In this document: positions 3,871 through 64,000 of the stretch, in pieces | Numbering within the stretch: position 1 is the first letter of the stretch | How the letters are laid out: each line of letters begins with the position of its first letter | DNA from: a virus | Virus record (IMG/VR): IMGVR_UViG_3300031951_000037 | Span: 32,001 to 96,000 of that record | Direction: 5' to 3' (one strand) | DNA length: 64,000 nucleotides | Position numbers and translations under genes: made by a program | Notes under the pieces: generated by a model | Databases searched by the model: none | The model's input: the letters and a program-made list of their open reading frames with translations, nothing else | What the model was told of the DNA's origin: nothing

Positions 3871-4761
3871 TTAATCAGGTAACTGCATTTTCATGTCTTT
3901 CATCTGTCTGCTAAAGCTTGGGTTGAATCCATTCATTTCTAAAATATCGTCACGAATGTTTTGATTGCGCTTTTCGGTATTCAATACACGACAGAAGCTA
4001 TTAGTAATAGCGGCGGTGTAGTATGCGAATGGGTTAGCACTCTTTGCTTCGTTGAACCTAAGCCCAACATATGTTAGTTGCAACACAGCACTAGCCTTCA
4101 TTTCATCATTATACGTATAGCCGCGCCAGTTAAACTTCATGGCATACTTCTCACAAAGCATCATGTACATTCTAGCAAGCTTGTTAGTAATCTGTCCATG
4201 CTCTTTGCTAAAATGCCCGTTCTCCATACCACCTACCCAGTGGCTTTTGCCAACACAGTTGAAGGTATTGGTCTCGTCAAGCTTGTAATGCTGGAAGGGA
4301 GGGAAGTTGACCTTTACGTGAACCATATCGTCAACTGCTTTCTTGGTTGACTTGTCTTCTAGGTCTGAAAAGTCTTCGTCATCATCGTCATCAAAGATGA
4401 AGATTTCTTTGGCCGACTTCTTCTTTACTGTTTTTCTGGGCTGCTTTTGTGCAACTGGTACATGCTCCCATGTCATGACTCTAAAGATTAGGTCAGTAAC
4501 ACTAATGTCTTCTGCTAGAACCTTTTCGCCTGTTTCTTGAGTCAGTCTGGTTGCTCTAGTTTCTTTGGCTTGTTGAATCTGTTCAGGCTTCAATGCATAT
4601 TCTAAACTAGTTGTTAATTCGCTCTCAGGCATATCAATGATAATGTCATATCTGTGATATTCTGGTTCTATGAAAGAACAATATGAATTTTTACTTGTAT
4701 GGATTTCTTTTAAAATGTCTTTGTTATTTAGGTAGTTGATTTTTTTTGGTTTGACTGCCAT
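3871..4761 (-). CDS. gp55: Late-transcription sigma factor (T4 gp55 family) with a large internal insertion
   Basis: NYLNNKDILKEI resembles the gp55 N-terminus (NYVNNKELL); FNWRGYTYNDEM...RFNEAKSANPFAYYT resembles the gp55 core. Start moved to the ATG at 4761, which follows AGGA. Order 55-47-46 is as in T4. Confidence 0.85.
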   Translation of the reverse strand: MAVKPKKINYLNNKDILKEIHTSKNSYCSFIEPEYHRYDIIIDMPESELTTSLEYALKPEQIQQAKETRATRLTQETGEKVLAEDISVTDLIFRVMTWEHVPVAQKQPRKTVKKKSAKEIFIFDDDDDEDFSDLEDKSTKKAVDDMVHVKVNFPPFQHYKLDETNTFNCVGKSHWVGGMENGHFSKEHGQITNKLARMYMMLCEKYAMKFNWRGYTYNDEMKASAVLQLTYVGLRFNEAKSANPFAYYTAAITNSFCRVLNTEKRNQNIRDDILEMNGFNPSFSRQMKDMKMQLPD

Positions 4762-4784
4762 AGTTATTCCTATTCGTAGAGATG

Positions 4785-4812
4785 AGTATACTACACTGTT
4801 GTAAAAATGCAA
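4785..4812 (-). promoter_or_regulatory. Sigma70-like promoter for the gp55-like gene, overlapped by a 7-bp palindrome
   Basis: Minus strand reads TTGCAT-N16-TATACT; ACTGTTG-N8-CAACAGT at 4795-4816 overlaps the -35 element and spacer. Confidence 0.5.
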
Positions 4813-4845
4813 CAGTTTAGGGTAAAAAATCACCAAATTTTGAGC

Positions 4846-4853
4846 GATAAATA
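4846..4853 (+). promoter_or_regulatory. Late promoter (GATAAATA) for the baseplate module
   Basis: Matches T4 late consensus TATAAATA at 7 of 8 positions; lies upstream of the first plus-strand structural gene; a gp55-like gene is adjacent. Confidence 0.7.
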
Positions 4854-4886
4854 CATGTAGAGTAGTGTATTTATCAAGGGAAATTT

Positions 4887-45825: not shown

Positions 45826-46138
45826 AGTAGTTGTTATTTGGGAAAGTCATAAGGTTGCCAAGCCAGAGTTTAGGCTTTATTATGACGATAGGGGATGTGC
45901 TATCGCTTATACCTGTGAAAAACTTGAAGGTAATTACATTATCATTGATGCAACAACATTTGCTGAGGCTAGACCCGACATTAAAGTTGTTGACGGAAAA
46001 ATCATTAGAGATCACTATGGCTCGGTAGTGAGCAAGTTGTGTAAAGACACTGAGGGTGTTCTTTGTGAGGTTGAAGACCTAAGCGTTATCACTGAGACCG
46101 ATGGACAATATTGGAAATTAAAAACTTATGAATTATGA
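45818..46138 (+). CDS. Hypothetical protein, 106 aa
   Basis: Overlaps both neighbours in the operon; no recognisable family. Confidence 0.6.
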   Translation: MDEVVVIWESHKVAKPEFRLYYDDRGCAIAYTCEKLEGNYIIIDATTFAEARPDIKVVDGKIIRDHYGSVVSKLCKDTEGVLCEVEDLSVITETDGQYWKLKTYEL

Positions 46139-47106: not shown

Positions 47107-48504
47107 ATGTCATTTAACGATTACCAGCGTCATTTAGAAAATACAAAGACCGAATTGGATTCGGTTAGTGGTTCATTCTGTGCCGCTAAGTGGAAGCAAG
47201 TGACCATGCACTTACAGAATGGCCACACGCATAGCTGTCACCACCCCAAAACACACCACGTACCGGTTGAAGAAATTAAAAGAAATCCAACTGCATTGCA
47301 TAACAGCGAATATAAAAAGCAGCAGAGAAAATTGATGCTTGAAGGTGAACGCCCTTCTGAGTGTGACTATTGCTGGAGAGTAGAAGATCAGGGAGATAGC
47401 TTTAGTGACCGAGTGTACAAGAGTGCAGACAACTGGGCCAAACCTTTTATTCAAGATATCGCTAGCAAGCCATGGGATGACAACGTTGATCCTAGCTACG
47501 TAGAAGTTAGCTTTGGTAATGTGTGCAACTTCAAGTGCAGTTATTGTGCGCCACATATCAGCAGTCAGTGGATGGAAGAAATTGAAAGACACGGTCCCTA
47601 TCCTACCAGCGATAACTTTAACAATCTAGATTGGCTAAAGAGTCAGAACATGATTCCGATTCCCAATAGAGAAGAAAACCCATACGTTGACGCTTTTTGG
47701 GAATGGTGGCCAAGAATGTATAATAGTTTGCAGCACTTTAGAATTACGGGCGGCGAACCACTATTAAACAAAAACACTTTCAAGGTATTGGACTATATTA
47801 TTGATAATCCTAATCCTAACCTAGAAGTAAGTATCAATACTAATATGAATGCACCTGACGATATTCTTGACAAGTTTTTAGAGAAGGTCAAGATCATTCA
47901 TGGTGAAAATAAATTAAAGAACTTTAAGTTGTTTACAAGTGCCGAAGCTCATGGTAGACAGAGTGAGTATATCAGATTTGGAATGAATTATGATAAATGG
48001 TTAGGCAACATTCATAAAACTTACAAAGAAGTTCCGGGTATTCAGTTCACCATTATGAGCACCTACAACTTCCTAAGTATGACTTCATATATTCCATTCT
48101 TGAAAGATGTGCTAGATATTAAGTTAGAGTATCATCGTTGGGACGATCACAGAACCCCGATGTTACTTGACATTCCATATCTAAGATTCCCCAATCATCA
48201 GGCAATATTCATTATGGAACCAGAGCAGCTACAAATGATCTATGATCAGGTTACATTCATGTACCAAAATCTTGAATACAAGAACTGGTATGGTAGTGCT
48301 AACCGTGGGTTCTTTGAACATGAGGCTGACAAATTGAAAAGAATCTACAATATCGCTAAAGACAATGTTGTAACGGAAGTCACCGAAAATAATCGCAGAA
48401 ACTTTGTAAAGTTTGTTGATGAGCATGACAAGCGCCGAGGCACGAACTTCTTAGCGACATTCCCTGAGTACGGGGAAGTTTACTATAAGTGGAAGAATAT
48501 GTAA
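47107..48504 (+). CDS. Radical SAM protein with an N-terminal Cys/His-rich (twitch/SPASM-like) region
   Basis: CNFKCSYC at 47524-47547, ITGGEPLL, SINTN; N-terminal C...SCHH...CDYCW. Confidence 0.9.
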   Translation: MSFNDYQRHLENTKTELDSVSGSFCAAKWKQVTMHLQNGHTHSCHHPKTHHVPVEEIKRNPTALHNSEYKKQQRKLMLEGERPSECDYCWRVEDQGDSFSDRVYKSADNWAKPFIQDIASKPWDDNVDPSYVEVSFGNVCNFKCSYCAPHISSQWMEEIERHGPYPTSDNFNNLDWLKSQNMIPIPNREENPYVDAFWEWWPRMYNSLQHFRITGGEPLLNKNTFKVLDYIIDNPNPNLEVSINTNMNAPDDILDKFLEKVKIIHGENKLKNFKLFTSAEAHGRQSEYIRFGMNYDKWLGNIHKTYKEVPGIQFTIMSTYNFLSMTSYIPFLKDVLDIKLEYHRWDDHRTPMLLDIPYLRFPNHQAIFIMEPEQLQMIYDQVTFMYQNLEYKNWYGSANRGFFEHEADKLKRIYNIAKDNVVTEVTENNRRNFVKFVDEHDKRRGTNFLATFPEYGEVYYKWKNM

Positions 48505-52538: not shown

Positions 52539-53430
52539 TGAGTTGATCTTGATAGCGAACGGCGATAGCTGGACCTATGGATGTGAAATAGTGGATCCTA
52601 TCCTGCTGGAAAAATATCCAAAGATCACTCATTTGACTGAGATAGACTATCTTCCTGAAAATGATAGTTATAGACTCTCTAGAGTATGGTCAACTAAGCT
52701 AGCAGAGTTATTAAAATGCAAGGTGATGAACATATCTGAGCCGGGCGATGACAACACTAGCATACTGTCTAGGACGCAAGAGTATGTCCTGCATTTACTG
52801 AGTCAGGGCGTAAAGCCCGAACAACTGTTTATCGTTATCGGTTGGACAAGTCCAGAACGCAGAGACTTTTGGTACAAGAGTGATGACAACACTCAAAGCT
52901 ATAAGTTTAAGCTTAACCCCCACACGCCAAAATATAATGAGCGTCCATTAACGGAGCTTACTAGGACATATGCATTGAACTTTTGGAATCCAGAAGAATA
53001 TATTGTTAGGTATGTCACTACCGTGTTGAACTTCCAAAACTTTTGTGTAGCGCATGGAATTAAGTTTTTAAGCTTTAATGCTTTCTATAGACAAAAAAAC
53101 GCGGACATTGGTACATGGCAAGATATCAATATTGAAGAACAACTTAACTCGTTGTCATTGGGAAACATCCCTATTTCAGATAATAGTACTCGTGAAGTCC
53201 ATCGTATAAATTACAATACAGTGTGGCAAAATATAGATAGTACCAGATACTATAATAAAGACAACGTGAATAATTCATTTAAGACATTTGTGGATAATAC
53301 GCTTGGGCCACAAGGATATACTGGATGGCACCCAAATGAAGATGGCCATAATTTATGGGCCACTCAACTATTTCGGTATATACAAGAACATAAGCTACTA
53401 AATATTGGATATGACTATGAACGAACCTAA
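52525..53430 (+). CDS. SGNH/GDSL-family hydrolase or acyltransferase, 3 of 3
   Basis: IANGDSWTYG, SEPGDDN, C-terminal WHPNEDGH. Confidence 0.75.
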   Translation: MDTTDELILIANGDSWTYGCEIVDPILLEKYPKITHLTEIDYLPENDSYRLSRVWSTKLAELLKCKVMNISEPGDDNTSILSRTQEYVLHLLSQGVKPEQLFIVIGWTSPERRDFWYKSDDNTQSYKFKLNPHTPKYNERPLTELTRTYALNFWNPEEYIVRYVTTVLNFQNFCVAHGIKFLSFNAFYRQKNADIGTWQDINIEEQLNSLSLGNIPISDNSTREVHRINYNTVWQNIDSTRYYNKDNVNNSFKTFVDNTLGPQGYTGWHPNEDGHNLWATQLFRYIQEHKLLNIGYDYERT

Positions 53431-53860
53431 AATTGTAACTAAGCACTGGGGCCAAGAAACATGGATAGCTGACGGTGTTAGAACTCCATATGCATTAAAG
53501 CGTATTCTTTTTAAAGCTGGTAACAGAACGAGCTTGCAGGTGCACCAACAAAAGTTTGAAACTAACTATGTACTCTCAGGCACAGGCTTGTTGTATATCA
53601 GCAAAGACAAGTTTGACGTAGAACACTTCTTGAATAATTCAATGACACCAGCAGAAGTGGAAGAATACGAATCAACATTTGATATTGTACAACTTGAACC
53701 AGGCGTCACCTTTGATGTTCAACCTGGGTATGTCCATCGTGTAGTTGCCACTACAGACCTTGAATTCATTGAAGCAAGTACTCCAGAGCTTGATGACGTT
53801 ATAAGACTTCAGGACGATCAGAACAGAACGCATGGCAGAATACAGTATGAGCACCAGTAA
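53411..53860 (+). CDS. Cupin (type II mannose-6-phosphate isomerase-like)
   Basis: KHWGQE...RTSLQVHQQKFETNYVLSG...VHRVVA...EASTPELDDVIRLQDD; start at ATG 53411 or 53417. Confidence 0.85.
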   Translation: MTMNEPKIVTKHWGQETWIADGVRTPYALKRILFKAGNRTSLQVHQQKFETNYVLSGTGLLYISKDKFDVEHFLNNSMTPAEVEEYESTFDIVQLEPGVTFDVQPGYVHRVVATTDLEFIEASTPELDDVIRLQDDQNRTHGRIQYEHQ

Positions 53861-55406
53861 TACAGTAGTTATACCTACTGCTGGATTAGGCTCTAGAATG
53901 GGCAATCTTACTAAGAACCTAAACAAAGCCCTATTGCCCTACAAGAACAAGCCGGTATTGTCACATATCATAGATCAGTTTCCTGATAATACAGACTTTA
54001 TTATTCCTGTTGGACACTTGAGTCAACAGGTTAAAGACTATTGTAATATTGCACATGATGACAGAAATATAACGTTTGTTGAGATTGACGACTATACTTC
54101 TAGTATTAGTGGCACTGCCTATACTTTAAAAAGATGCTTGCATTTATTAAATAAACCGTTTTGGTATATACCCTGCGACACATATTTTAATATTGATCTA
54201 GTATCGTTGATCAATGACACCAGTAAAAACTATTATTTCACTAAGCAGGTAGATGAAGAATTAACCAATCTTTATACGATGTTCAAGACCGACGACATGG
54301 TTATCACTGACATGTTGTTTAAAGAACAATGCTCAACTGATTACGCAGCCTTTACCGGCGTCATGTATCTTGGTGATTATACAAGCTTTAATTCACGGCT
54401 ACGTGAGCTAGCAAGCAATGAAGTTATTTTTGCAATAGCCAGTGGTGAATCTACGATTGATCTAGCTAGCTGGATTGACTTCGGTAACATTGAAAGCTAT
54501 ACCGACGCAGTAAATGCTAGTCAAAAGTTTGACTTTAGTAAAGAAGATGAAATCACTTATGTCACTGAATCTAAGGTTGTCAAGTGGTGGGTAGATAAGT
54601 CTGTTACTGAAAACAAGTATAAGCGTACAGTAAATCATACTGAGATATATCCAAACAACTGTAAAATAGTTGGCAACTTTTTAGCATACGACTTATATCC
54701 TGGGAAAACATTGTACCAGCACAACAACGTTGAACACTTTAGTAGTTTACTAACATGGCTGGATACTAATGTTTGGCAGTATACGAACACAGATATAAAA
54801 GATAACTGCATTGATTTCTACAAGAATAAGACTATCCATAGAATTGACAAGTATCTTAGTAAGTATGTTGAACAAGAAAATGTCACAAGCGTAAATGGTA
54901 TTGATGTAAAAGATTATACATACTATCTAAACAACATAGACTATTCTTATTTGTCAGAGACAGTTCAAGCTTCGTATGTTCACGGCGACTTACAGTTTGA
55001 TAATATTATTTTAGGTGAAGACTATAGATTAATTGACTGGCGTCCTGACTTTGCGGGTAACACAGTAACCGGTGACATTTACTATGATTTGGCTAAGTTA
55101 GCTGGTGGATTCATTATTAACTATAGTAAGATCAAAGAGAACAACTTCAAGATTGACATTGTTGATAATAATGTTACATTGGAAATACCTTATATAGATA
55201 ACCATGAACAGTATTTTGACATATTGAAAAAGTTCGTAGACGAGAAAGAACTAGAGTGGAAGAAGGTAGAACTATTGATTCCTGTAATCTTTTGGAACAT
55301 GTCTCCACTACACACTAGTCCCTTTGATAAGTTTCTTTGGTACCTAGGTATTAAATTGTTCCAGGAGTATGAATCTAAATACTCTAATCATGAAGCAGTT
55401 CTATAG
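53847..55406 (+). CDS. Nucleotidyltransferase fused to an APH/choline-kinase-like phosphotransferase
   Basis: N-terminal IPTAGLGSRM...KALLPYKNKP, PCD; C-terminal HGDLQFDNI...LIDWR...GDIYYDLAKL. Confidence 0.85.
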   Translation: MSTSNTVVIPTAGLGSRMGNLTKNLNKALLPYKNKPVLSHIIDQFPDNTDFIIPVGHLSQQVKDYCNIAHDDRNITFVEIDDYTSSISGTAYTLKRCLHLLNKPFWYIPCDTYFNIDLVSLINDTSKNYYFTKQVDEELTNLYTMFKTDDMVITDMLFKEQCSTDYAAFTGVMYLGDYTSFNSRLRELASNEVIFAIASGESTIDLASWIDFGNIESYTDAVNASQKFDFSKEDEITYVTESKVVKWWVDKSVTENKYKRTVNHTEIYPNNCKIVGNFLAYDLYPGKTLYQHNNVEHFSSLLTWLDTNVWQYTNTDIKDNCIDFYKNKTIHRIDKYLSKYVEQENVTSVNGIDVKDYTYYLNNIDYSYLSETVQASYVHGDLQFDNIILGEDYRLIDWRPDFAGNTVTGDIYYDLAKLAGGFIINYSKIKENNFKIDIVDNNVTLEIPYIDNHEQYFDILKKFVDEKELEWKKVELLIPVIFWNMSPLHTSPFDKFLWYLGIKLFQEYESKYSNHEAVL

Positions 55407-56118
55407 CTTAAGTCAGTATCCTGGTAAAACTGGAACATACTACTACAATCTGTTCTTTAATAAGTTTGGTATTGACGCAACTTATACAGCATTGGGTTGC
55501 CAGCCACATGAATTCAATGACACGTTTAACCGCCTAGTCAACGATACTGATACGTGTGGCATCAGTGTGAGTATGCCATATAAAAACACAGTAACCCATC
55601 TGTGTAACGAATTAGACAAACAAGCTCACCTATATAATAGTTGCAATACAGTTACGGTAAACAATGGACATACCGTAGGATATAACTGCGACATATATGG
55701 ATTGTTGGGTATCATTTCTGAGATATCAGTTGACGATAAGATATCAATATTAGGCGATGGGTCTATGGGACAAATGTTCTATCGTTACCTAAACGACAAT
55801 AAATATTTTGATGTTACCGTGTATAGCAGAAAAAACAACAATTGGCATGACAGGCATGAACCAGCGAACGTCATAATAAATTGCACTAGCTTGGGCACGA
55901 GCGAACTTGTTTCTCCATTAATGTTGATTCCTGCAGGAACCTCGTGTATAATTGACTTAGCGTTAAACAAGTCCGTTTTATACGAGCAATGCTTAGCAAG
56001 CCATGTGAAGTACATAACTGGTACGAACTTTTACGCACATCAATTTGTAAAGCAGTTTGAAATATACACTGGTATAAAAATTACAGTTGAACAGTTTAAC
56101 GAAGTGGCAATTAAATGA
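55390..56118 (+). CDS. Shikimate dehydrogenase-like (AroE fold) oxidoreductase
   Basis: SVSMPYK, CNTV, GYNCD..G, ILGDGSMG, INCTSLG, HQFVKQFEIYTG. Confidence 0.8.
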   Translation: MKQFYSLSQYPGKTGTYYYNLFFNKFGIDATYTALGCQPHEFNDTFNRLVNDTDTCGISVSMPYKNTVTHLCNELDKQAHLYNSCNTVTVNNGHTVGYNCDIYGLLGIISEISVDDKISILGDGSMGQMFYRYLNDNKYFDVTVYSRKNNNWHDRHEPANVIINCTSLGTSELVSPLMLIPAGTSCIIDLALNKSVLYEQCLASHVKYITGTNFYAHQFVKQFEIYTGIKITVEQFNEVAIK

Positions 56119-56600
56119 TTATAAACAAACTTGTTATTGATATTGATGGTGTGTTGACAACCGGGCATGTACTATACAATATAGAAGGCAAAACCTTCAA
56201 GATTTTTGGGCCACACGATAAGGATGGTCTTAAACTAGTAACTAAGTATATCAGTGATATTACTTTTATCACTGCGGACAAGACTGGCTTTGATATCACT
56301 TACGCAAGAATCGTCAAAGATTGGAAGTTTCGTGATGATCAGTTAGTTTTGGTTCCGGAAGAATCTAGATTTGACTGGTTTGTAAGTAATTGTGATTTCA
56401 ACACAACTGCATATATTGCTGATGGTTACCACGATGCTCCCATATTAGAGCGGGTAGCACTCGGTATTGCCCCCAAAACTGCTAGAATTGAAGCAAGAAA
56501 TAGTGCTAATTATGTCACACCTAGTGATGCTGCAAATGGTGCTGTACTTGACGCATGTTTATATATTGAAAGAGTGATTAATGGACTTGAAACAGTTTAA
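56115..56600 (+). CDS. HAD-family phosphatase, KdsC/YrbI-like
   Basis: DIDGVLTTG, DKDG, ITADK, YIADGYHD...ANGAV. Confidence 0.85.
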   Translation: MIINKLVIDIDGVLTTGHVLYNIEGKTFKIFGPHDKDGLKLVTKYISDITFITADKTGFDITYARIVKDWKFRDDQLVLVPEESRFDWFVSNCDFNTTAYIADGYHDAPILERVALGIAPKTARIEARNSANYVTPSDAANGAVLDACLYIERVINGLETV

Positions 56601-57585
56601 ATTAGGTGTGGGTCCAATGAGCAAAGAGATAGTTGAGCTATGCCTCAACTATAGCCACTCGCACGATCATCCACTAATGATTATCGCTAGTCGCAATCAA
56701 GCAGATTACGATAGTGGGTACGCAATGAATACCAAAGAACTATCGGAGCTAGTGTTCAATCATGAACATTATAATCCTAATAGGGTATTATTGTGTAGAG
56801 ACCATTGCGGTCCTTATTTCAGCGATATGGATAATGGTCTAGAACTAGAAGCAGCGTTAGTGCGATGCTTGAATACAATCAAGGCCGACATTGATGCAAA
56901 CTTTGACCTCATTCACGTTGACGTAAGCAGAGTAGAACCGAACAAGCAGCAATATGTTGCCGAGAAGTTGTTTTCCTATGCAATGGAACTGAATCCAAAT
57001 ATTATGTTTGAGTTTGGCACCGAAGACAATACGGGCAACACCACTGAAACATTGAATATGTTGAACATTCAACTAGAATATGTCAAGCCTTGGCAGAACA
57101 ATCTTCGCTATGTAGTGTCTCAGACAGGAAGCTTGACTAAGCAAACTCAAGTTGGTACGTTCAACATTGAACAGACCAAGAAGCTTATCAACGTCATTCA
57201 TCAAAATGGCTATATGTTCAAGGAACATAATGCAGACTATCTTGATGTTGAGCAGGTAAAGTTGCGTAAAGATACAGGAGTGGATGCATTAAATATCGCC
57301 CCGCAACTTGGCACTATTGCTAGCAGTGTGCTATATGATTTGGGTTCGGGCACAGTTGAATTATCAGAGTTCATGAATGTTGTACTTGATTCGGGCTATT
57401 ATAAAAAGTGGTGCACCGTTGAAGTAGACAATGACAAAGACCGCTTTATCAGTTCTGCACACTATTTGTTTGAGCATCCATACTGCTATGATCTAAAGCA
57501 AGTAATAGATATGGAAGAATACGCTACAGTGTTAGAGGCTAGATTGTTTGACGCACTAGACCAATATAGATTTGGGTACAACTAA
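56581..57585 (+). CDS. GatZ/KbaZ-like TIM-barrel protein (tagatose-phosphate epimerase/aldolase-like)
   Basis: IIASRNQ, RDHCGP, IHVDVS, FEFGTE, VVSQTG, KEHNADY, NIAPQLG follow the GatZ/KbaZ motif order. Confidence 0.75.
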   Translation: MDLKQFKLGVGPMSKEIVELCLNYSHSHDHPLMIIASRNQADYDSGYAMNTKELSELVFNHEHYNPNRVLLCRDHCGPYFSDMDNGLELEAALVRCLNTIKADIDANFDLIHVDVSRVEPNKQQYVAEKLFSYAMELNPNIMFEFGTEDNTGNTTETLNMLNIQLEYVKPWQNNLRYVVSQTGSLTKQTQVGTFNIEQTKKLINVIHQNGYMFKEHNADYLDVEQVKLRKDTGVDALNIAPQLGTIASSVLYDLGSGTVELSEFMNVVLDSGYYKKWCTVEVDNDKDRFISSAHYLFEHPYCYDLKQVIDMEEYATVLEARLFDALDQYRFGYN

Positions 57586-57637: not shown

Positions 57638-57742
57638 ATGATTAAAATTATCAAGAACCTTATCAACAAAGTTAGGCGCGAGATTCTATATAGAAAAAGA
57701 ATCAAAGAGCTTAAAAAAAGAGATCCACATATTTACAGATGA
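57638..57742 (+). CDS. Small basic 34-aa peptide, absent from the ORF track
   Basis: MIKIIKNLINKVRREILYRKRIKELKKRDPHIYR; follows a late promoter; ATGA overlap with the carbamoyltransferase. Confidence 0.6.
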   Translation: MIKIIKNLINKVRREILYRKRIKELKKRDPHIYR

Positions 57743-59229
57743 ACTACGTAGGCATTAGTTGCGGCTTCCATGATGCCGGTTTAAGTGTCATTGATAACAA
57801 TGGCAATATTCTTTTTGCTGGGCACAGCGAACGATATAGCAAGAAAAAGCATGATAGTGACTTGTGCTTGGGCATTGTTGATGATGCGTTAAATTATATC
57901 AACAATGATTTTCAAGTGCATTACTATGAACGCCCTTATGTTAAGGCAATCCGTCAACTATATGCAGGGCAAAAGTTAGGACCATTTGGCTGGGACAAGT
58001 TAATCGGTTCTTCATTGTATGCGTTAAACACGGGCGAACACTCTCATAAAGGTAGAGTAAAGACGCACAATCACCATCTATGTCACGCCGCAGCAGGATT
58101 CCAAACAAGTCCATATGAAGATGCTACAGTAGTTGTTATTGATGCTATCGGTGAACTAGATACTATTAGTATTTGGGATGCAACTTACGATAAGAACGGT
58201 GTAGCAAAGTACAAGAAGATTTGGGGACGCAAGTATCCTGACTCAATTGGTCTTTTCTATTCTGCAATGACAGCACGAGTAGGCTTGCGCCCACTAGACG
58301 AAGAATATATTCTGATGGGTATGGCTGCATATGGTAAGCCAGTATATGATATCTCAATGCAACGATTATTCAGTAACTTTAATGAGATTGTTTTGAAAGA
58401 TAACCTACACATCGGAGTTGATGAAAAGTTTCTAAAGGATGCAGACGAAATGGATATTGCTGCATCTGCACAGGCTGTTGTTGAACAGCTAATAGAAACA
58501 GTAATGAAGAAGGCTAAGAAGCTAGGTAGTAGCGACAATCTCGTATATGGCGGCGGCGTTGCTCTCAATTGTCTTGCCAACAGACTACTGGGTAAGTATT
58601 ACGAAAACATTTGGATCATGCCTAACCCAGGTGATGCAGGTAATAGCTTAGGCGCAGCAGCGTTGGGCTATGGCAAGAAGATCAACTGGACAGATGCTTT
58701 CTTAGGATTTGACATTGAAGGTGATTATCCGGTTGACAGCATCATCAAAGAATTATATAGTAACAAGATGGTAGGTGTCGCTAGTGGCAGGGCGGAGTTT
58801 GGCCCTCGTGCATTAGGTAATCGAAGCCTGCTAGCAGACCCTCGCGGCCCTGAAATTAAGGACAAAGTTAATGACATTAAACGAAGACAGAAGTTCCGCC
58901 CGTTTGCGCCAGTCATTTTGGAGGAGCTGGTTACTGATTACTTTGATATGCCTAGTGGCTGGAGCGACAGTAGGTATATGCAAGTCATCGCTACTTGTAG
59001 GCATCCTGACTTATTTCCTGCTATCGTTCATCATGACGGGACTTCTCGTGTTCAGACTGTCCCGAATGACGGATCAGGAATTAGAAAACTACTAGAAGCC
59101 TGGTATAAAGAAACCGGCTGCCCAATGCTTTTGAATACGTCATTGAACATTCGTGGAGAACCCATGGTTAATGATCGTAATGATGCTGATAGATTTGAAA
59201 AACTCTATGGAGTAAAAGTCTGCTCATAA
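57739..59229 (+). CDS. O-carbamoyltransferase (NodU/CmcH/TobZ family)
   Basis: GFHDAG, ERYS..KHD, HHLCHAA, IDAIGE, SIGLFY, GGVALNC, GDAG, EFGPRALGNRS, RQKFRPFAP, HHDGTSRVQTV, LLNTSLN. Confidence 0.95.
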   Translation: MNYVGISCGFHDAGLSVIDNNGNILFAGHSERYSKKKHDSDLCLGIVDDALNYINNDFQVHYYERPYVKAIRQLYAGQKLGPFGWDKLIGSSLYALNTGEHSHKGRVKTHNHHLCHAAAGFQTSPYEDATVVVIDAIGELDTISIWDATYDKNGVAKYKKIWGRKYPDSIGLFYSAMTARVGLRPLDEEYILMGMAAYGKPVYDISMQRLFSNFNEIVLKDNLHIGVDEKFLKDADEMDIAASAQAVVEQLIETVMKKAKKLGSSDNLVYGGGVALNCLANRLLGKYYENIWIMPNPGDAGNSLGAAALGYGKKINWTDAFLGFDIEGDYPVDSIIKELYSNKMVGVASGRAEFGPRALGNRSLLADPRGPEIKDKVNDIKRRQKFRPFAPVILEELVTDYFDMPSGWSDSRYMQVIATCRHPDLFPAIVHHDGTSRVQTVPNDGSGIRKLLEAWYKETGCPMLLNTSLNIRGEPMVNDRNDADRFEKLYGVKVCS

Positions 59230-59238: not shown

Positions 59239-62200
59239 ATGCTTAGAGACGTATTCTATTTTGGTAAAAAGCCCAACGTTCATCCTAGAGAACAGTTTGC
59301 AGAGAATCTACAAGATGCTAGACTAAAAGCCACTACTCGTGACTTTTGGATCATTAATGAGTTCTCTGACTATCGCAATTTTGATTGGGACTTTGATTTT
59401 GAATTTTTGCCTGACGAAGACGTTTGGGCAGAAGATCACAATAACGTATGGCCTAGTCAGCATCAAAAGGACAGTGGCACATGGTTGTGTCCCAAGGAAC
59501 ATAGTGATGTTATTGTCTATCGCAATGATGTAGATCCGGTCATTCGTAAAAACGAAAAGACCGACCAATGGGTCGAGCTTGATTTAATCAACTATAGTAA
59601 GTTTGACTTTAGTTGGCATCCTGACCCAACTGATCCTCCCTATATCTATAAGTGGGGTTGTAAGTTCTTCCCAACAGAAATCAAGCATGTATTAGAGTAT
59701 CGTGTTCCTGGCGCTACTCAAGAAAAGTATATGAACACGATTGCAGAGTTAGTACCTGAATATGATCGTTGGGTAGAACATCAGGCAATTGACAAAGATA
59801 GATTTGATATGTCATGGAGACCAAATCCATTGGATCCACCATTCATCTATGTTTGGGGTAACAAGTATGTTGACGGAAGACTACAGCCCACACTTGAATA
59901 TCATGCTCCGAACGCAACTGATATAAAATATCTATCAGAACTTGTCCCTGTTTTACCTGAACAAGATAGATGGACTATTCTTGAGGATATTGTAAAAGAT
60001 TCATTTGACTTTAGCTGGCGTCCTGACCCAAGAGAACCAGCATTCATTTATGTATTTGGTAACGAACAATACGATGGCACAATCATGCCTACACTTGAAT
60101 ATCGTTGCCCTAATGCTACAGAAATTAAGTATGTCAATGATATTACGGCTAAATTAGCTCCCAAGAAGGAATTGTTTGAGCATTTAGAAGACAGTTATGG
60201 TATTGATTATAGCTGGCGCCCTAATCCTACAAGTCCTCCCTATATCTATGCATGGGGTAATCAATGGAATAGTCCAGAAGAAAAGATATCTATTCAGTTT
60301 GTCGTTCCAGGAGCCACAGAATACAAATATATGACAGAGCGTGCTATTCGCAAGCCATGCATGGATAATTGGGTAGTCCCTGATGATGTTGACGCTACTG
60401 GATTTGATTTTAGTTGGGAGCCAAACCCCACGGCACCCCCGTACATTTATGAGTTCGCAACACAATGGCAGAAGACCGGCGGCCCTCAGTACGTAGTACC
60501 GGGAGCTACGGAGAAACAGTATGTGGATTTTCAAAGAGTTAAAAGACTTCCTACAAACAAAGGTTGGGCGATTCCTAACAATATTGATATTGATAGATTT
60601 GATTTTTCATGGCATCCAGATAGTTCTAGTCCTCCTTATGTTTATGTATTTTCTACTCAGTGGGCATTCAGCGGCGGACCTGTATATACAGTTGATGGAG
60701 CAACTGAGGTCAAGTATGTAGAAGATCAGGTTGCTACTGCAATCGTAGATATGAATAATTGGGTATATGATGCTACTGAGATTGATGTAGACAGCTTTGA
60801 TTTTAGCTGGCATCCACATGCAGAAGATCAGCCATATATCTACCAGTTCGGTACTCAATGGCAGAAGACAGGTGGTCCTAAATATATTACTTCGGGCGCT
60901 GATAATTCAAGCCCGGTAAAATATGTAGATACTCGTATTATAAAAGCAATGCGCTTATCCAACCCACATGATTACTATTGGGTAGAAAATTATCCCATTA
61001 AAGACTTTGATTACTCATGGCACCCAGACGATACCGAAGAGCCATATATCTATGTATTTGGTAACAAGCAGTATCCTGCCGAAGAGTGTCCTACTATTGA
61101 ATATAGAATGGAAGGCGCAACTCAGGTAAAATACATTCATGATATCGTAGCTACGTTAGATGTAGATATGACTAACTGGGTAATTCATGAACCAATTGAT
61201 GAAGACAGTTTTGACTTTAGTTGGGTACCTAATCCAACTGACCAGCCTTATATCTATGTTTTCGGTAACCAACGTTATTCGGGTGAGATTTATCCCACTG
61301 TAGAATATCGTACTCCTAATGCGACAGAAAAGAAATATGTCAGTGATGTAACCGCTAAACTTAAAGTTGACAAGTCTAAGTTTACTTTATTATATCCAAT
61401 AAACGAAGATAAGTTTGATTTTAGATGGAGACCTAACCCAATGTCTCCTCCCTATATCTATATCTTCGGTAACCAATATTACTCAGCAGAAGAAATGCCC
61501 ACTGTAGAATATCGGGTAGATGGTGCTACCGAAATAAAATATGTGAAAAATATTACTGCACATTTGAAGTCCAACATGACAAATTGGGAAGTTCCTAGTA
61601 ACATTGACGTTTCAAGTTTTGATTTTAGCTGGGTGCCTCATCCCAAAAGTCCTCCCTACATCTATGAGTTTGCAACGGTGTGGAATGACAGGGGCGGACC
61701 TAGGTATATCGTCAAAGGGGCAACAGAATACAAGTACATTGAAGAAATTAAAGCTAAAACATTACCTGATAAAACCAATTGGGACATTCCGAATAATATT
61801 GATATTTCAAGTTTTGATTTTAGCTGGGTTCCTCATCCCAATTCCCCTCCATACATATATGAGTTTGGGACACAATGGAATGACAGGGGAGGACCTGTTT
61901 ACCGAATGCCTGGTGCAACGGAATACAAATACATTGATACTGTAAAGGCAAATACTCTTCCAAGCCGAGTCAACTGGGAAATACCAGACGGGGTAGATGT
62001 TAGACGATTTGATTTTAGTTGGGCACCACATCCGATGGCCCCGCCCTACATCTATCAGTTTGGTACTAAGCTAGATAACAACGACGGTCCTAGATATGTC
62101 ACGCCTAGCAACAACGGAGAGATTGTATATCTTGAGCGGGTAGAACTTTTAGGTTCATCTGATATTAGTGTGGGTCAATATTATATTGAAACCAGCTTGG

Positions 62201-64000
62201 AAGAGTTAATCAATAAGCATCCAAAAGAAATCTTTTGGGCAATGCGAAAGAACATTGACTATTCACACTTTGATTTTAGCTGGCGCCCAACTACTGTGGA
62301 AGTTGCCTATGAACTAGATTATGTTCATGTTTTTGGTTCTCCTGAATCAGAACTAACACAGACATATTTTGTGAGCGCAGAGCATTATCTAAAAGGTAAC
62401 ACCGAGTTTAAGTTTGTAGAAGATTTAAAACTAAATGAAGATACTTTGGCTAAACTATTCAAGAAGCCTGATATGTTCTTTATTGACAGAAGCAATAGTG
62501 AATCACAAGAGCGGTTTGAGAAGCTTAAAGAACGTTTCCCTGGCATTCAAAAGACTCGCTATCTTAATAGCTGGGTTGATACTATCAATCGCTGCACTAA
62601 GAAAGCAAGCACTGAATTGATTTGGGTTCTTAATAGTGAACTAGACTATAGCGACTTTAACTTTGATTACTATCCTAATCCTTGGCAGATGAAGATGGTT
62701 CAAGTGTTTGGTACTCAGTGGAGCCATTGGGGAACAACGTTCATGGTTAACTGCGAAACATTCCCCGAAGATACCAGGTATGTCAAGATTATTGAACATC
62801 TATCCAACTTGAACTTTGTGAAGGATATTCGTACTAAGGCAACACAGTGCGTCCATGATATTGTAGTTATTGACCATGCTAACAAGGAAACAAGTGATGT
62901 AGTGTCATTTTTGCAGAGTAAGGTATCTGACAACACGATTACGGTAATTCCTTATCAAGAGAGCTACCTAGAAACCTTCAAGGAAATTATTAGTAAGCAG
63001 CAAGAAAAGAAGGATCATTACATTTGGATTTGCTCAAGTGTATGTGACTATACGAACTTTGATTTCTCATATGTGTGTGATCCGTTTGCAAGAGACCAGC
63101 TACATGTTTTCCCAAGTGGAACGCAGAAGTTCGGTGATACTTTCTTCGTAGATGTTAACAAGGCTAGAGAAGTTATCAGTGATCTAGAACTACTAGAAAG
63201 CTTCAATAAGGTAAACTACAACATGACTATTAGGGCAGAAAGATTGCCCGAACCAGTGATTGTTGTTAATGATGACACGCATTCTACTGCTATTAATAAG
63301 ATTATTGATTTCCCATACGCAACACTAGTTACCTATGATAACACTGATGTACCTAAGGTTGATATTGAGCCGATGAATCTTTGGTCTAGCGATACTAAGA
63401 ATATCTATGTTACTAGTACTGGTGCAACTCGTATTGTTGTGCCTGTCGAAGCTAAGGACTATGTTAAGAAAGAATTGTATGAATATCCATACATTAAGCG
63501 TGCTCCTAAGTTAGCAACTTCTAAGCCATTAGATATCGTATACCTAAGTAACGGCGAAACAGGTGCCGACGAAAACTATCAATACTTGTTAGATGTTACT
63601 AAGGATCTCCCCAATAGAGTTGTTAGGGTAGATGGAATTAACGGTCGTGTTGCTGCTTATCATGCAGCAGCAGAGGCTAGCGAAACGACTTGGATGTTCA
63701 CGGTCTTTGCTAAGCTTAAAGTCAACCCTAAGTTTGATTGGAACTGGCAACCCGATAGAATGCAGGCTCCTAAGCATTATATTTTCTATGCAAAGAATCC
63801 AGTTAACGGATTAACCTACGGTCACCAAGCAATGATCGCATATAACAAGAAGCTCACACTTGCTAATGAAGGCAAAGGTCTTGATTTTACATTGGATGAC
63901 GAGCATGAAGTAGTGCCATTGATTTCAGGAACAGCAAACTACAATACTGACGAGTTCTCAACGTGGCGCACTGCATTTAGAGAAGTTATCAAGCTTAAAG
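59239..64000 (+). CDS. Giant tandem-repeat protein of GT-A-derived modules, >1587 aa, truncated by the window edge
   Basis: Hand translation is open from ATG 59239 (MLRDVFYFGKKPNVHP) to the window end (TWRTAFREVIKLK) with no stop; the last domain is homologous to the 46128 protein. Confidence 0.9.
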   Translation, partial: MLRDVFYFGKKPNVHPREQFAENLQDARLKATTRDFWIINEFSDYRNFDWDFDFEFLPDEDVWAEDHNNVWPSQHQKDSGTWLCPKEHSDVIVYRNDVDPVIRKNEKTDQWVELDLINYSKFDFSWHPDPTDPPYIYKWGCKFFPTEIKHVLEYRVPGATQEKYMNTIAELVPEYDRWVEHQAIDKDRFDMSWRPNPLDPPFIYVWGNKYVDGRLQPTLEYHAPNATDIKYLSELVPVLPEQDRWTILEDIVKDSFDFSWRPDPREPAFIYVFGNEQYDGTIMPTLEYRCPNATEIKYVNDITAKLAPKKELFEHLEDSYGIDYSWRPNPTSPPYIYAWGNQWNSPEEKISIQFVVPGATEYKYMTERAIRKPCMDNWVVPDDVDATGFDFSWEPNPTAPPYIYEFATQWQKTGGPQYVVPGATEKQYVDFQRVKRLPTNKGWAIPNNIDIDRFDFSWHPDSSSPPYVYVFSTQWAFSGGPVYTVDGATEVKYVEDQVATAIVDMNNWVYDATEIDVDSFDFSWHPHAEDQPYIYQFGTQWQKTGGPKYITSGADNSSPVKYVDTRIIKAMRLSNPHDYYWVENYPIKDFDYSWHPDDTEEPYIYVFGNKQYPAEECPTIEYRMEGATQVKYIHDIVATLDVDMTNWVIHEPIDEDSFDFSWVPNPTDQPYIYVFGNQRYSGEIYPTVEYRTPNATEKKYVSDVTAKLKVDKSKFTLLYPINEDKFDFRWRPNPMSPPYIYIFGNQYYSAEEMPTVEYRVDGATEIKYVKNITAHLKSNMTNWEVPSNIDVSSFDFSWVPHPKSPPYIYEFATVWNDRGGPRYIVKGATEYKYIEEIKAKTLPDKTNWDIPNNIDISSFDFSWVPHPNSPPYIYEFGTQWNDRGGPVYRMPGATEYKYIDTVKANTLPSRVNWEIPDGVDVRRFDFSWAPHPMAPPYIYQFGTKLDNNDGPRYVTPSNNGEIVYLERVELLGSSDISVGQYYIETSLEELINKHPKEIFWAMRKNIDYSHFDFSWRPTTVEVAYELDYVHVFGSPESELTQTYFVSAEHYLKGNTEFKFVEDLKLNEDTLAKLFKKPDMFFIDRSNSESQERFEKLKERFPGIQKTRYLNSWVDTINRCTKKASTELIWVLNSELDYSDFNFDYYPNPWQMKMVQVFGTQWSHWGTTFMVNCETFPEDTRYVKIIEHLSNLNFVKDIRTKATQCVHDIVVIDHANKETSDVVSFLQSKVSDNTITVIPYQESYLETFKEIISKQQEKKDHYIWICSSVCDYTNFDFSYVCDPFARDQLHVFPSGTQKFGDTFFVDVNKAREVISDLELLESFNKVNYNMTIRAERLPEPVIVVNDDTHSTAINKIIDFPYATLVTYDNTDVPKVDIEPMNLWSSDTKNIYVTSTGATRIVVPVEAKDYVKKELYEYPYIKRAPKLATSKPLDIVYLSNGETGADENYQYLLDVTKDLPNRVVRVDGINGRVAAYHAAAEASETTWMFTVFAKLKVNPKFDWNWQPDRMQAPKHYIFYAKNPVNGLTYGHQAMIAYNKKLTLANEGKGLDFTLDDEHEVVPLISGTANYNTDEFSTWRTAFREVIKLK
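59570..62110 (+). repeat. 13 tandem ~65-aa repeats: W......FDFSW.P.P..PPYIY.FG.Q....P..EY..PGATE.KY
   Basis: FDFSW-like cores counted in translation at about 59602, 59803, 60004, 60205, 60403, 60598, 60796, 61006, 61210, 61414, 61618, 61813 and 62008. Confidence 0.9.

Follow-up and report, generated by a model that had tools for sequence, protein, structure and literature searches.

A phage-borne copy of a widespread five-gene cassette that may make a nucleotide-activated rare sugar

The route to nucleoside diphosphate (NDP)-heptoses employs the isomerase GmhA, the kinase HddA or HldE, the HAD phosphatase GmhB and the nucleotidyltransferase (NTase) HddC or HldE, while the lincosamide GDP-octose pathway, reportedly the subject of work by Sasaki in 2012 and Lin in 2014, is said to run through LmbR, LmbN, LmbP, LmbK and LmbO. 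The gtp1-3 genes encode a reductase, a phosphotransferase and a cytidylyltransferase, and choline kinases are marked by a post-catalytic D-x-E motif. In pneumococci, gtp1-3 constitute a three-gene pathway to CDP-2-glycerol (PMC1391919). A phage-encoded precedent is the UDP-D-arabinose module of E. coli phage HY126, which consists of an arabinose-5-phosphate isomerase (API), AfhE and AfhF. According to the report on this module, AfhE phosphorylates D-arabinose-5-phosphate (Araf-5-P) at C1 and forms UDP-Ara, the HAD enzyme AfhF strips the 5-phosphate between the kinase and pyrophosphorylase steps of AfhE, and the respective counterparts are gp55, gp52:53 and gp51 in RB69 and gp83, gp82 and gp81 in DLP3 (PMC13326640). 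In the case of E. coli GatZ, residues Asp87, His88, Glu171 and His257 have been assigned to a Zn-dependent retro-aldol/aldol C4 epimerisation of fructose-6-phosphate (F6P) to tagatose-6-phosphate (T6P) (PMC11907403). Here, we analyse a 64,000-nt window, bases 32001-96000 of the 126.5-kb IMG/VR virus record IMGVR_UViG_3300031951_000037 (estimated record completeness 36%), and within it a cassette of five genes encoding a cupin, a nucleotidyltransferase-kinase fusion (NTK), an AroE-fold reductase, a KdsC-like phosphatase and a short GatZ-like protein. Our preferred reading, on which we hold the balance to be even, is that the cassette makes an NDP-activated rare aldose from a central ketose phosphate, and is the phage-borne copy of a widespread pathway.

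The cassette comprises five intact plus-strand open reading frames (ORFs) between 53405 and 57585, which overlap or abut one another (Table 1), in agreement with a preliminary description of this DNA that had claimed five overlapping genes. The five family calls made in that description were likewise upheld by Pfam/NCBIfam-type family scans of the window proteins, with the AroE-like, KdsC-like and GatZ-like proteins each falling under the equivalog cut-off of their namesake family. Homologues of the fusion form 793 clusters at E <= 0.001, with identity of at least 50% throughout the top 120. Scanning viral contigs with the fusion as a single sequence returned nothing, whereas an alignment-based search found 261 loci in viral contigs and 193 in species-representative genomes; the best 80 of each were analysed. 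A tblastn census of these 160 loci revealed that the other four genes adjoin the fusion in most. For a census with hidden Markov models (HMMs), we retained those with 4 kb or more of flanking sequence to either side, 51 cellular and 57 viral (108 in total), counted regardless of relatedness. The GatZ-like gene was detected in 48 of the 51 cellular and 55 of the 57 viral loci, the cupin in 46 and 55 (101 of 108 overall), the KdsC-like phosphatase in 43 and 27, and the AroE-like reductase in 36 and 46, respectively. A classical short-chain dehydrogenase/reductase (SDR) is present in 10 of 51 cellular loci and in none of the 57 viral ones, leaving 5 cellular and 11 viral loci with neither reductase. 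Alongside the fusion, the GatZ-like protein and the cupin therefore each occur in approximately 94% of the 108 loci, and some reductase in 85%. Not a single locus contains both reductase types, whereas independence of the two would predict approximately 7 such cases among the 51 cellular loci (a calculation that disregards relatedness among loci). The AroE-like and SDR enzymes clearly fill one slot, and because two unrelated families occupy it, the reductase is an integral part of the pathway.

Gene order is cupin-NTK-AroE-KdsC-GatZ in the phages and varies by lineage in cells, where we found KdsC-GatZ-c10-cupin-NTK-AroE (c10 being an additional protein family, see below), KdsC-AroE-NTK-GatZ-cupin and KdsC-NTK-GatZ-SDR-cupin. 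The shuffled order among phyla points to selection on the gene set over inherited synteny. In addition, single-frame gene fusions were found in metagenome-assembled genomes (MAGs), two joining the cupin to the NTK and two joining the NTK to the GatZ-like protein. The co-occurrence, which far exceeds what chance would give, the varied order and these natural fusions establish the five genes as one conserved functional unit. A lack of co-occurrence elsewhere had been named beforehand in the preliminary description as one finding that would refute it; the tblastn and HMM censuses showed the opposite.

In the fusion, the N-terminal domain (approximately residues 11-200) is predicted to be a sugar-1-phosphate nucleotidyltransferase, and the C-terminal domain (approximately residues 270-500) a kinase of the APH/choline-kinase fold. 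Pfam matches are limited to NTP_transf_3 at residues 13-124 and a weak APH match at residues 379-424, with no match to the Choline_kinase family. No model reached its curated cut-off in an NCBIfam scan of the fusion; the top models for the NTase domain were the archaeal GlmU N-domain, AglF and HddC, all of them sugar-1-phosphate nucleotidyltransferases. The best match in the PDB is LicC (1jyk, 30 bits), and automatic source names describe the homologues as 'CTP:phosphocholine cytidylyltransferase-like protein/choline kinase'. Across 26 sequences, the motifs PTAGxGxRM...K, HGDLxFDN and IDWR...GDIYYDLAK are invariant. We found that the fusion matches phrog_4098 across both domains (residues 11-425 against profile positions 3-420 of 559, E 1.2e-17). 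On this profile, RB69 ORF053c reaches 398 bits and ORF052c 566 bits; together (gp52:53) they are founding members of phrog_4098. When the fusion was aligned to the RB69 proteins using hhalign, the kinase half (ORF052c) gave 95% probability and the NTase half 68%, with approximately 24-25% identity across the aligned stretches. Both kinases share the motifs HGDxxFxN and IDxR..F..G..YD.AK. These profile comparisons make phage AfhE/RB69 gp52:53, a sugar-phosphate 1-kinase and UDP-sugar pyrophosphorylase, a distant homologue of the fusion. The preliminary description had cited LicA/LicC as a precedent for a kinase acting with a cytidylyltransferase; on the phrog_4098 and hhalign results, the AfhE type, and not LicA/LicC, is the closest characterised relative.

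The cupin, a small protein with a single domain, matches Pfam Cupin_2 and, marginally, the C-terminal mannose-6-phosphate isomerase family PF01050 (24.1 bits compared with a cut-off of 23.6), as well as region 358-416 of the TIGR01479 GMP_PMI model. The motifs KPWGxExW, SLQxHxxKxE and H111-R112 are invariant in 23 homologues, and an acidic/arginine tail is conserved. We take SLQxHxxKxE...H to be the Gln/His/Glu/His metal pattern of phosphomannose isomerases (PMI). An AlphaFold2 (AF2) model with a predicted local distance difference test (pLDDT) score of 89 has generic cupins as its Foldseek neighbours, including the archaeal PMI 7zvy/7zvm, cPGI, D-lyxose isomerases, quercetinase and the CapF cupin. 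The cupin is probably a metal-dependent isomerase interconverting ketose phosphate and aldose phosphate, of the phosphomannose isomerase type.

The GatZ-like protein scores 47 bits against PF08013 (GatZ_KbaZ-like; cut-off 26.7), with the match covering residues 16-119 only and 105 of 420 profile positions, and 34.7 bits against the GatZ/KbaZ/AgaZ equivalog TIGR02810, the cut-off for which is 568.8. A profile of the family matches GatZ structures 2fiq/3txv (E 4e-9, positions 19-226). The AF2 model is a TIM barrel (pLDDT 90), for which Foldseek places 2fiq/3txv on top (TM-score 0.76-0.79), followed by class II fructose- and tagatose-bisphosphate aldolases. Invariant features comprise D74-H75, H112xD114, E144, a GT[ED] motif in which the third position is always acidic, and H216..D219. 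Among these, D74-H75, the acidic GT[ED] residue and H216 align with GatZ Asp87, His88, Glu171 and His257, the Glu171 correspondence being read by eye as the HMMER alignment is locally offset there. In the HMM alignment, conservation does not extend to the GatZ-specific Glu44. The protein is predicted to epimerise a ketose phosphate at C4 in a Zn-dependent manner, or else to be a related retro-aldol/aldol enzyme. That some GatZ/KbaZ homologues are F6P/T6P 4-epimerases, as the preliminary description had stated, is supported by the literature (PMC11907403).

In the case of the phosphatase, the KdsC models TIGR01670 and NF007019 give 54.5 bits (cut-off 106.95) and 45.7 bits (cut-off 208), respectively, and KdsC and KDN-9-phosphate phosphatase models are also matched. 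HAD motif I reads DIDGVLT. Judging from these scores and this motif, the protein is a KdsC/YrbI-like capless HAD enzyme, KdsC-like without being KdsC proper, and is predicted to remove the distal (non-anomeric) phosphate. No significant similarity was detected between this phosphatase and RB69 gp51 (phrog_1238). In one group of viral loci (L086-L102), a 112-aa SnoaL-like protein (PF12680, E 5e-9) is encoded in the phosphatase's place, between the fusion and the AroE-like gene. Close to three Nanoarchaeota cassettes without the KdsC-like gene lie an inositol-monophosphatase-family gene and a further NTase or NTK paralogue, which could supply a substitute phosphatase or point to another activation pathway.

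The reductase scores 50.8 bits against Shikimate_dh_N and 95.8 bits against TIGR00507 (aroE), for which the cut-off is 200.2; every other aroE model is also sub-cut-off. The best PDB match is the SdhL protein HI0607 (1npy), and a match to the 5-ketofructose reductase 7cok was also found. The AroE catalytic set is invariant, with K72/D108, N93-T94, Q225/Q229, the G129xG131 glycine loop and the NADP-binding R154 all retained. The protein is therefore best described as an AroE-fold, SdhL/HI0607-like NADP(H)-dependent oxidoreductase that is predicted to be active. The AroE fold is able to act on keto-sugars, as 7cok shows. A true shikimate-pathway role was considered and rejected in view of the sub-cut-off scores, the swap for a classical SDR and the presence of the gene in genomes of the candidate phyla radiation (CPR) and DPANN archaea.

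From the families, catalytic residues, co-occurrence, gene fusions and AfhE homology described above, we infer a route together with its substrates, step order, nucleotide and acceptor. The GatZ-like Zn enzyme would first remodel a ketose phosphate via retro-aldol/aldol chemistry, in the simplest case by C4 epimerisation, either of F6P to T6P or through the same reaction on sedoheptulose-7-phosphate (S7P) or a pentulose-5-phosphate. The PMI-type cupin would then convert the ketose phosphate to an aldose phosphate, and the C-terminal kinase domain of the fusion would phosphorylate the anomeric C1 to give a sugar 1,n-bisphosphate. Following removal of the distal phosphate by the KdsC-like HAD phosphatase, the N-terminal NTase domain would join the sugar-1-phosphate to a nucleoside triphosphate. 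The SdhL-like NADP(H) reductase would contribute one extra carbonyl reduction, the position of which we leave unplaced. The resulting NDP-sugar would feed glycosyltransferases, encoded by envelope polysaccharide loci in cells and by an approximately 20-kb tail-fibre-adjacent island in the phage. Candidate products, considered on paper only, are sugars derived from F6P/T6P (talose/galactose type), from S7P (4-epi-heptose) or from pentuloses. The preliminary description had proposed that the sugar phosphate is reduced and re-phosphorylated prior to activation, giving an NDP-polyol or NDP-ketose. A nucleotide-activated end product is supported as the most likely outcome, and that part of the proposal stands; the order isomerase, C1 kinase, distal phosphatase and NDP-aldose formation is likelier than the one originally suggested because of the PMI motifs of the cupin and the AfhE-type fusion. 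Literature searches of accessible papers found no published characterisation of the cassette, and nothing relevant to the enzyme combination, consistent with the initial view of it as an uncharacterised pathway.

Cassette carriers include CPR bacteria, DPANN archaea, Bdellovibrionota, Planctomycetota, Verrucomicrobiota, SAR11/SAR86-type marine bacteria and at least 261 viral contigs. A tblastn search of 50,697 GenBank phage records retrieved one uncultured marine virus and two partial matches, and no cultured phage with the cassette; nor did a cultured organism carrying it come to light. In a quick FastTree phylogeny of 141 fusion proteins, which contains several long branches, all 63 viral rows lie on one side of a branch with Shimodaira-Hasegawa-like support of 97. 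The window fusion falls inside a 48-row viral clade, its nearest relative being 79% identical, and phage copies are 30-37% identical to cellular ones. The separate viral clade and this level of identity indicate that the phage cassette is an old, phage-maintained version and no recent capture.

The source element is a large T4-like (jumbo) phage and no bacterial capsule locus, because tail-fibre, tail-assembly-chaperone and baseplate-type genes lie upstream of the cassette, together with a 6718-codon ORF. The cassette sits in an island of approximately 20 kb that adjoins the tail-fibre genes and is kept in related phages. The island contains a twitch-domain radical SAM protein, three DUF7796-like and two DUF6071-like proteins, an O-carbamoyltransferase, a 1650-aa repeat protein and many uncharacterised genes. 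The O-carbamoyltransferase is encoded directly downstream of the cassette, and the tblastn census revealed the same placement in 53 related loci, nearly all viral; it probably has a tailoring role within this phage glycan island and stands outside the core cassette. A homologue of the radical SAM protein is present in most related viral loci in the same census. A Pfam scan at E <= 0.01 detected no domain in the first 1587 aa of the repeat protein. The T4 late-promoter core TATAAATA has 0 matches on both strands of the whole window, compared with 7.0 ± 2.5 expected from shuffles (at least one match in 100 of 100 shuffles). As the motif is absent from the window, it was set aside as a marker of late expression and supports no statement on timing.

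Table 1. Positions of the cassette genes, their neighbours and features of related loci (window coordinates unless a contig or locus handle is given).
Feature	Position	Strand	Details
Cupin	53405..53860	+	151 aa; probable start ATG 53411
Nucleotidyltransferase/APH-kinase fusion (NTK)	53832..55406	+	519-524 aa; likely start ATG 53847
AroE-fold SdhL-like reductase	55369..56118	+	249 aa
KdsC-like HAD phosphatase	56115..56600	+	161 aa
Short GatZ-like class II aldolase-fold protein	56581..57585	+	334 aa
6718-codon ORF	17537-37693		upstream of tail-fibre genes
Twitch-domain radical SAM protein	47107..48504	+	NF033640 344.8 bits, cut-off 170
NodU/CmcH-type O-carbamoyltransferase	57739..59229	+	Carbam_trans_N, Carbam_trans_C; phrog_1601 E 7e-95
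1650-aa repeat protein after the carbamoyltransferase	59239-64000, on to G000:C1:96192 (L164:240-5192)		
Thymidylate-synthase-family protein	G000:C1:106238-107062 (L163)		full length; PF00303, 353 bits
Single-frame cupin + NTK gene fusions (MAGs)	L013:9239-11545; L014:9269-11581		
Single-frame NTK + GatZ-like gene fusions (MAGs)	L043:9782-12694; L046:9887-12814		
Genes near KdsC-less cassettes (Nanoarchaeota MAGs)	L052:3684-4622; L068:1533-2471; L072:2979-3950, 4048-4854		
SnoaL-like protein of L086-L102	L087:11547-11885 (example)		112 aa
Family c10	L003:3402-4229 and 12 homologues		275 aa
Viral sub-clade L151-L160	L154:12994-14085 (example)		

In cells, the recurrent neighbours of the cassette encode methyltransferases, GT2 and GT1 glycosyltransferases, Wzx flippases, extended SDR epimerases/dehydratases and radical SAM proteins (some of them B12-binding), and these cassettes sit in envelope polysaccharide loci. 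The presence of GT2, GT1, Wzx and methyltransferase genes lends support to the earlier suggestion that the product serves as a donor for neighbouring transferases. A tally of 141 neighbouring ORFs revealed no LicD or TagF-type phospho-alcohol transferase among the 25 commonest Pfam families. In 13 cellular cassettes, family c10 is located between the GatZ-like and cupin genes. It has no Pfam or PDB match, and GT-A-like motifs can be recognised by eye (N-terminal ILNRN, E.GSD and TNDTEF), making c10 a candidate for a dedicated transferase of the cassette product. Alignment of c10 with four phage neighbours (one DUF7796-like, one DUF6071-like and the ORFs at 46128 and 51741) using hhalign found them to be unrelated. 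A viral sub-clade has the arrangement cupin-NTK-KdsC-GatZ with no detectable reductase, followed by a family of approximately 365 aa (c13); a sugar C-methyltransferase, a TylF-like O-methyltransferase and a GT2-like gene are located upstream. Family c13 has no Pfam or PDB match, and an atlas lead to GT2 is weak (14% share).

Several observations weigh against an NDP-aldose as the product. The logic of such a route needs no reductase, yet 85% of the cassettes have one, leaving an integral enzyme unplaced. The isomerase is assigned from short motifs and a Pfam score barely over its cut-off, with quercetinase and CapF level with or above PMI in the Foldseek ranking, and the best solved relative of the NTase domain, LicC, is a phospho-alcohol cytidylyltransferase, while the kinase fold is shared with choline kinases. 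The GatZ-like proteins might be true aldolases or transaldolases instead of epimerases. Furthermore, approximately half of the phage cassettes are without the KdsC-like phosphatase, so that a host enzyme would have to stand in, or the route would have to avoid a bisphosphate. The reductase in particular would find a clear role in an NDP/CDP-polyol-phosphate route as envisaged in the preliminary description, which explains the near-universal presence of this enzyme, drawn from two unrelated families, better than NDP-aldose synthesis does. Here, the GatZ-like protein would epimerise, the AroE-like enzyme or SDR would reduce the product to an alditol phosphate and the KdsC-like phosphatase would dephosphorylate it, after which the kinase would re-phosphorylate another hydroxyl and the NTase would yield a CDP-alditol for transfer as polyol-phosphate, following the logic of TarI/TarJ, Gtp1-3 and LicA/LicC. 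The LicC relationship, the choline-kinase/APH fold and the corresponding annotation of homologues fit such a scheme, as does the precedent of a three-gene route to CDP-2-glycerol in pneumococci (PMC1391919). We nevertheless consider it unlikely, as it leaves the PMI-type isomerase idle in 101 of 108 loci, and as the fusion is homologous across both domains to AfhE, which is reported to act at the sugar-phosphate C1 (PMC13326640). NCBIfam scores favour sugar-1-phosphate NTases, and the neighbouring transferases are of the GT2 and GT1 type, with no LicD/TagF-like proteins among the top 25 families.

A GatZ-like aldolase or transaldolase could alternatively build a higher-carbon sugar, coupling an aldose phosphate with a C3 ketol unit to give a heptulose or octulose phosphate, with subsequent isomerisation, C1 phosphorylation, dephosphorylation and NDP activation as in LmbR/N/P/K/O. 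The protein does belong to the class II aldolase superfamily with its metal/Asp site intact, the terminal phosphate of C8 or C9 sugars is the usual target of KdsC-type phosphatases, and the remaining four functions reportedly match LmbN/P/K/O one for one. This chain-building scheme leaves the reductase still unplaced, direct evidence of an acceptor aldose is lacking, and C4 epimerisation is the sole activity we found reported for GatZ/KbaZ proteins (PMC11907403), making it improbable in our judgement. It is more doubtful still that the phage product is a donor for DNA base hypermodification, comparable to UDP-arabinose on 5-hydroxycytosine in RB69, DLP3 and HY126. The fusion is distantly homologous to AfhE, the product of which is reported to end on DNA (PMC13326640), and the T4-like phage does encode a thymidylate-synthase-family enzyme. 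That protein matches ThyA with the score expected of an ordinary thymidylate synthase, no DNA glycosyltransferase was identified, and the cassette directly follows tail-fibre, tail-chaperone and baseplate genes, away from replication genes, in an island holding a carbamoyltransferase and many uncharacterised genes. Cellular homologues, moreover, lie in polysaccharide loci with Wzx flippases. We give least credence of all to the fusion being a plain LicC-LicA enzyme that makes CDP-choline, with unrelated flanking genes. Automatic source names and the best PDB match would suggest this function. Against it, the fusion co-occurs tightly with the cupin and the GatZ-like protein, and each of the two is found naturally fused to it. 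The kinase, in addition, has no Choline_kinase Pfam match and only a weak APH match, no LicD is found among the 25 commonest neighbour families, and the post-catalytic motif IDWR...F resembles that of the RB69 kinase (IDPR..F), unlike the choline-kinase D-x-E.

If an NDP-aldose is indeed the product, a widespread sugar-activation pathway is missing from current pathway maps. In the genomes of ultra-small uncultured cells, the cassette is conspicuously surrounded by surface glycan genes, and the glycans are currently unreadable from sequence; the identity of the product would extend the known glycan alphabet and explain part of the surface chemistry of these cells. Large T4-like phages would, furthermore, carry a complete de novo rare-sugar route beside their tail-fibre genes, which would point to virion or host-surface glycosylation as a phage trait. 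More speculatively, and somewhat against the balance of probability, the cassette could make a monosaccharide, or a sugar in reduced or branched form, that has yet to be described as a nucleotide-activated donor, through a combination of enzymes seen in no characterised sugar-nucleotide pathway. A large clade of marine and freshwater T4-like phages would then have retained a diverged copy of its own to glycosylate its virion or fibre proteins, or the surface of the infected cell, with this sugar.

A comparison with the phage UDP-arabinose module reveals that in both the key enzyme has an NDP-sugar pyrophosphorylase domain followed by an APH-fold kinase domain, the two chains being detectably homologous. 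Both occur in T4-like phages and share ketose phosphate isomerisation, a C1 kinase, a distal HAD phosphatase and nucleotidyl transfer (PMC13326640). In contrast to the SIS-type API of the module, the cassette isomerase is a PMI-type cupin, the phosphatase is KdsC-like and lacks significant similarity to RB69 gp51, and the cassette adds a GatZ-like enzyme and a reductase. The genomic context differs also, with the cassette located in envelope polysaccharide loci or the tail-fibre region, and the module in a DNA-modification/replication region. The NDP-heptose pathway likewise deploys an isomerase, an anomeric kinase, a distal phosphatase and a nucleotidyltransferase serially on a ketose phosphate; HldE is also a kinase/NTase fusion, and the cassette NTase matches the HddC model. 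The respective enzymes are drawn from different families (cupin versus SIS, APH versus GHMP/PfkB, KdsC-type versus GmhB-type HAD), and the heptose pathway is not known to include a GatZ-like enzyme or a reductase. Four of the six predicted cassette functions (isomerase, C1 kinase, distal phosphatase and nucleotidyltransferase) map one-to-one onto NDP-heptose and phage UDP-arabinose logic, and the GatZ-like enzyme would fit as the step of entry, turning a central ketose phosphate into an unusual one.

The lincosamide GDP-octose pathway reportedly provides a further parallel, very near to the six-function logic of the cassette, in which a C-C remodelling enzyme is followed by an isomerase, a C1 kinase, a HAD phosphatase and a nucleotidyltransferase. 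It is said to differ in every enzyme family, using a class I transaldolase, a SIS isomerase, a GHMP kinase and a GmhB-like HAD. With respect to the individual additional enzymes, the GatZ-like protein shares PF08013, the fold and the Asp-His/Glu/His residues with the GatZ/KbaZ epimerases, including the A. tumefaciens and Caldilinea enzymes cited alongside E. coli GatZ (PMC11907403). It is approximately 90 residues shorter (334 versus 420 aa), 17-18% identical, and found in a biosynthetic setting as opposed to the galactitol catabolism of GatZ. The reductase has the full AroE catalytic set and the NADP arginine in common with SdhL/HI0607 and the 5-ketofructose reductase 7cok; unlike its AroE-fold relatives, it occurs outside an aromatic amino-acid context and is replaceable by a classical SDR. 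What appears to be new here is the set of enzymes, deployed in what is otherwise the known sugar-nucleotide logic of isomerase, kinase, phosphatase and nucleotidyltransferase.

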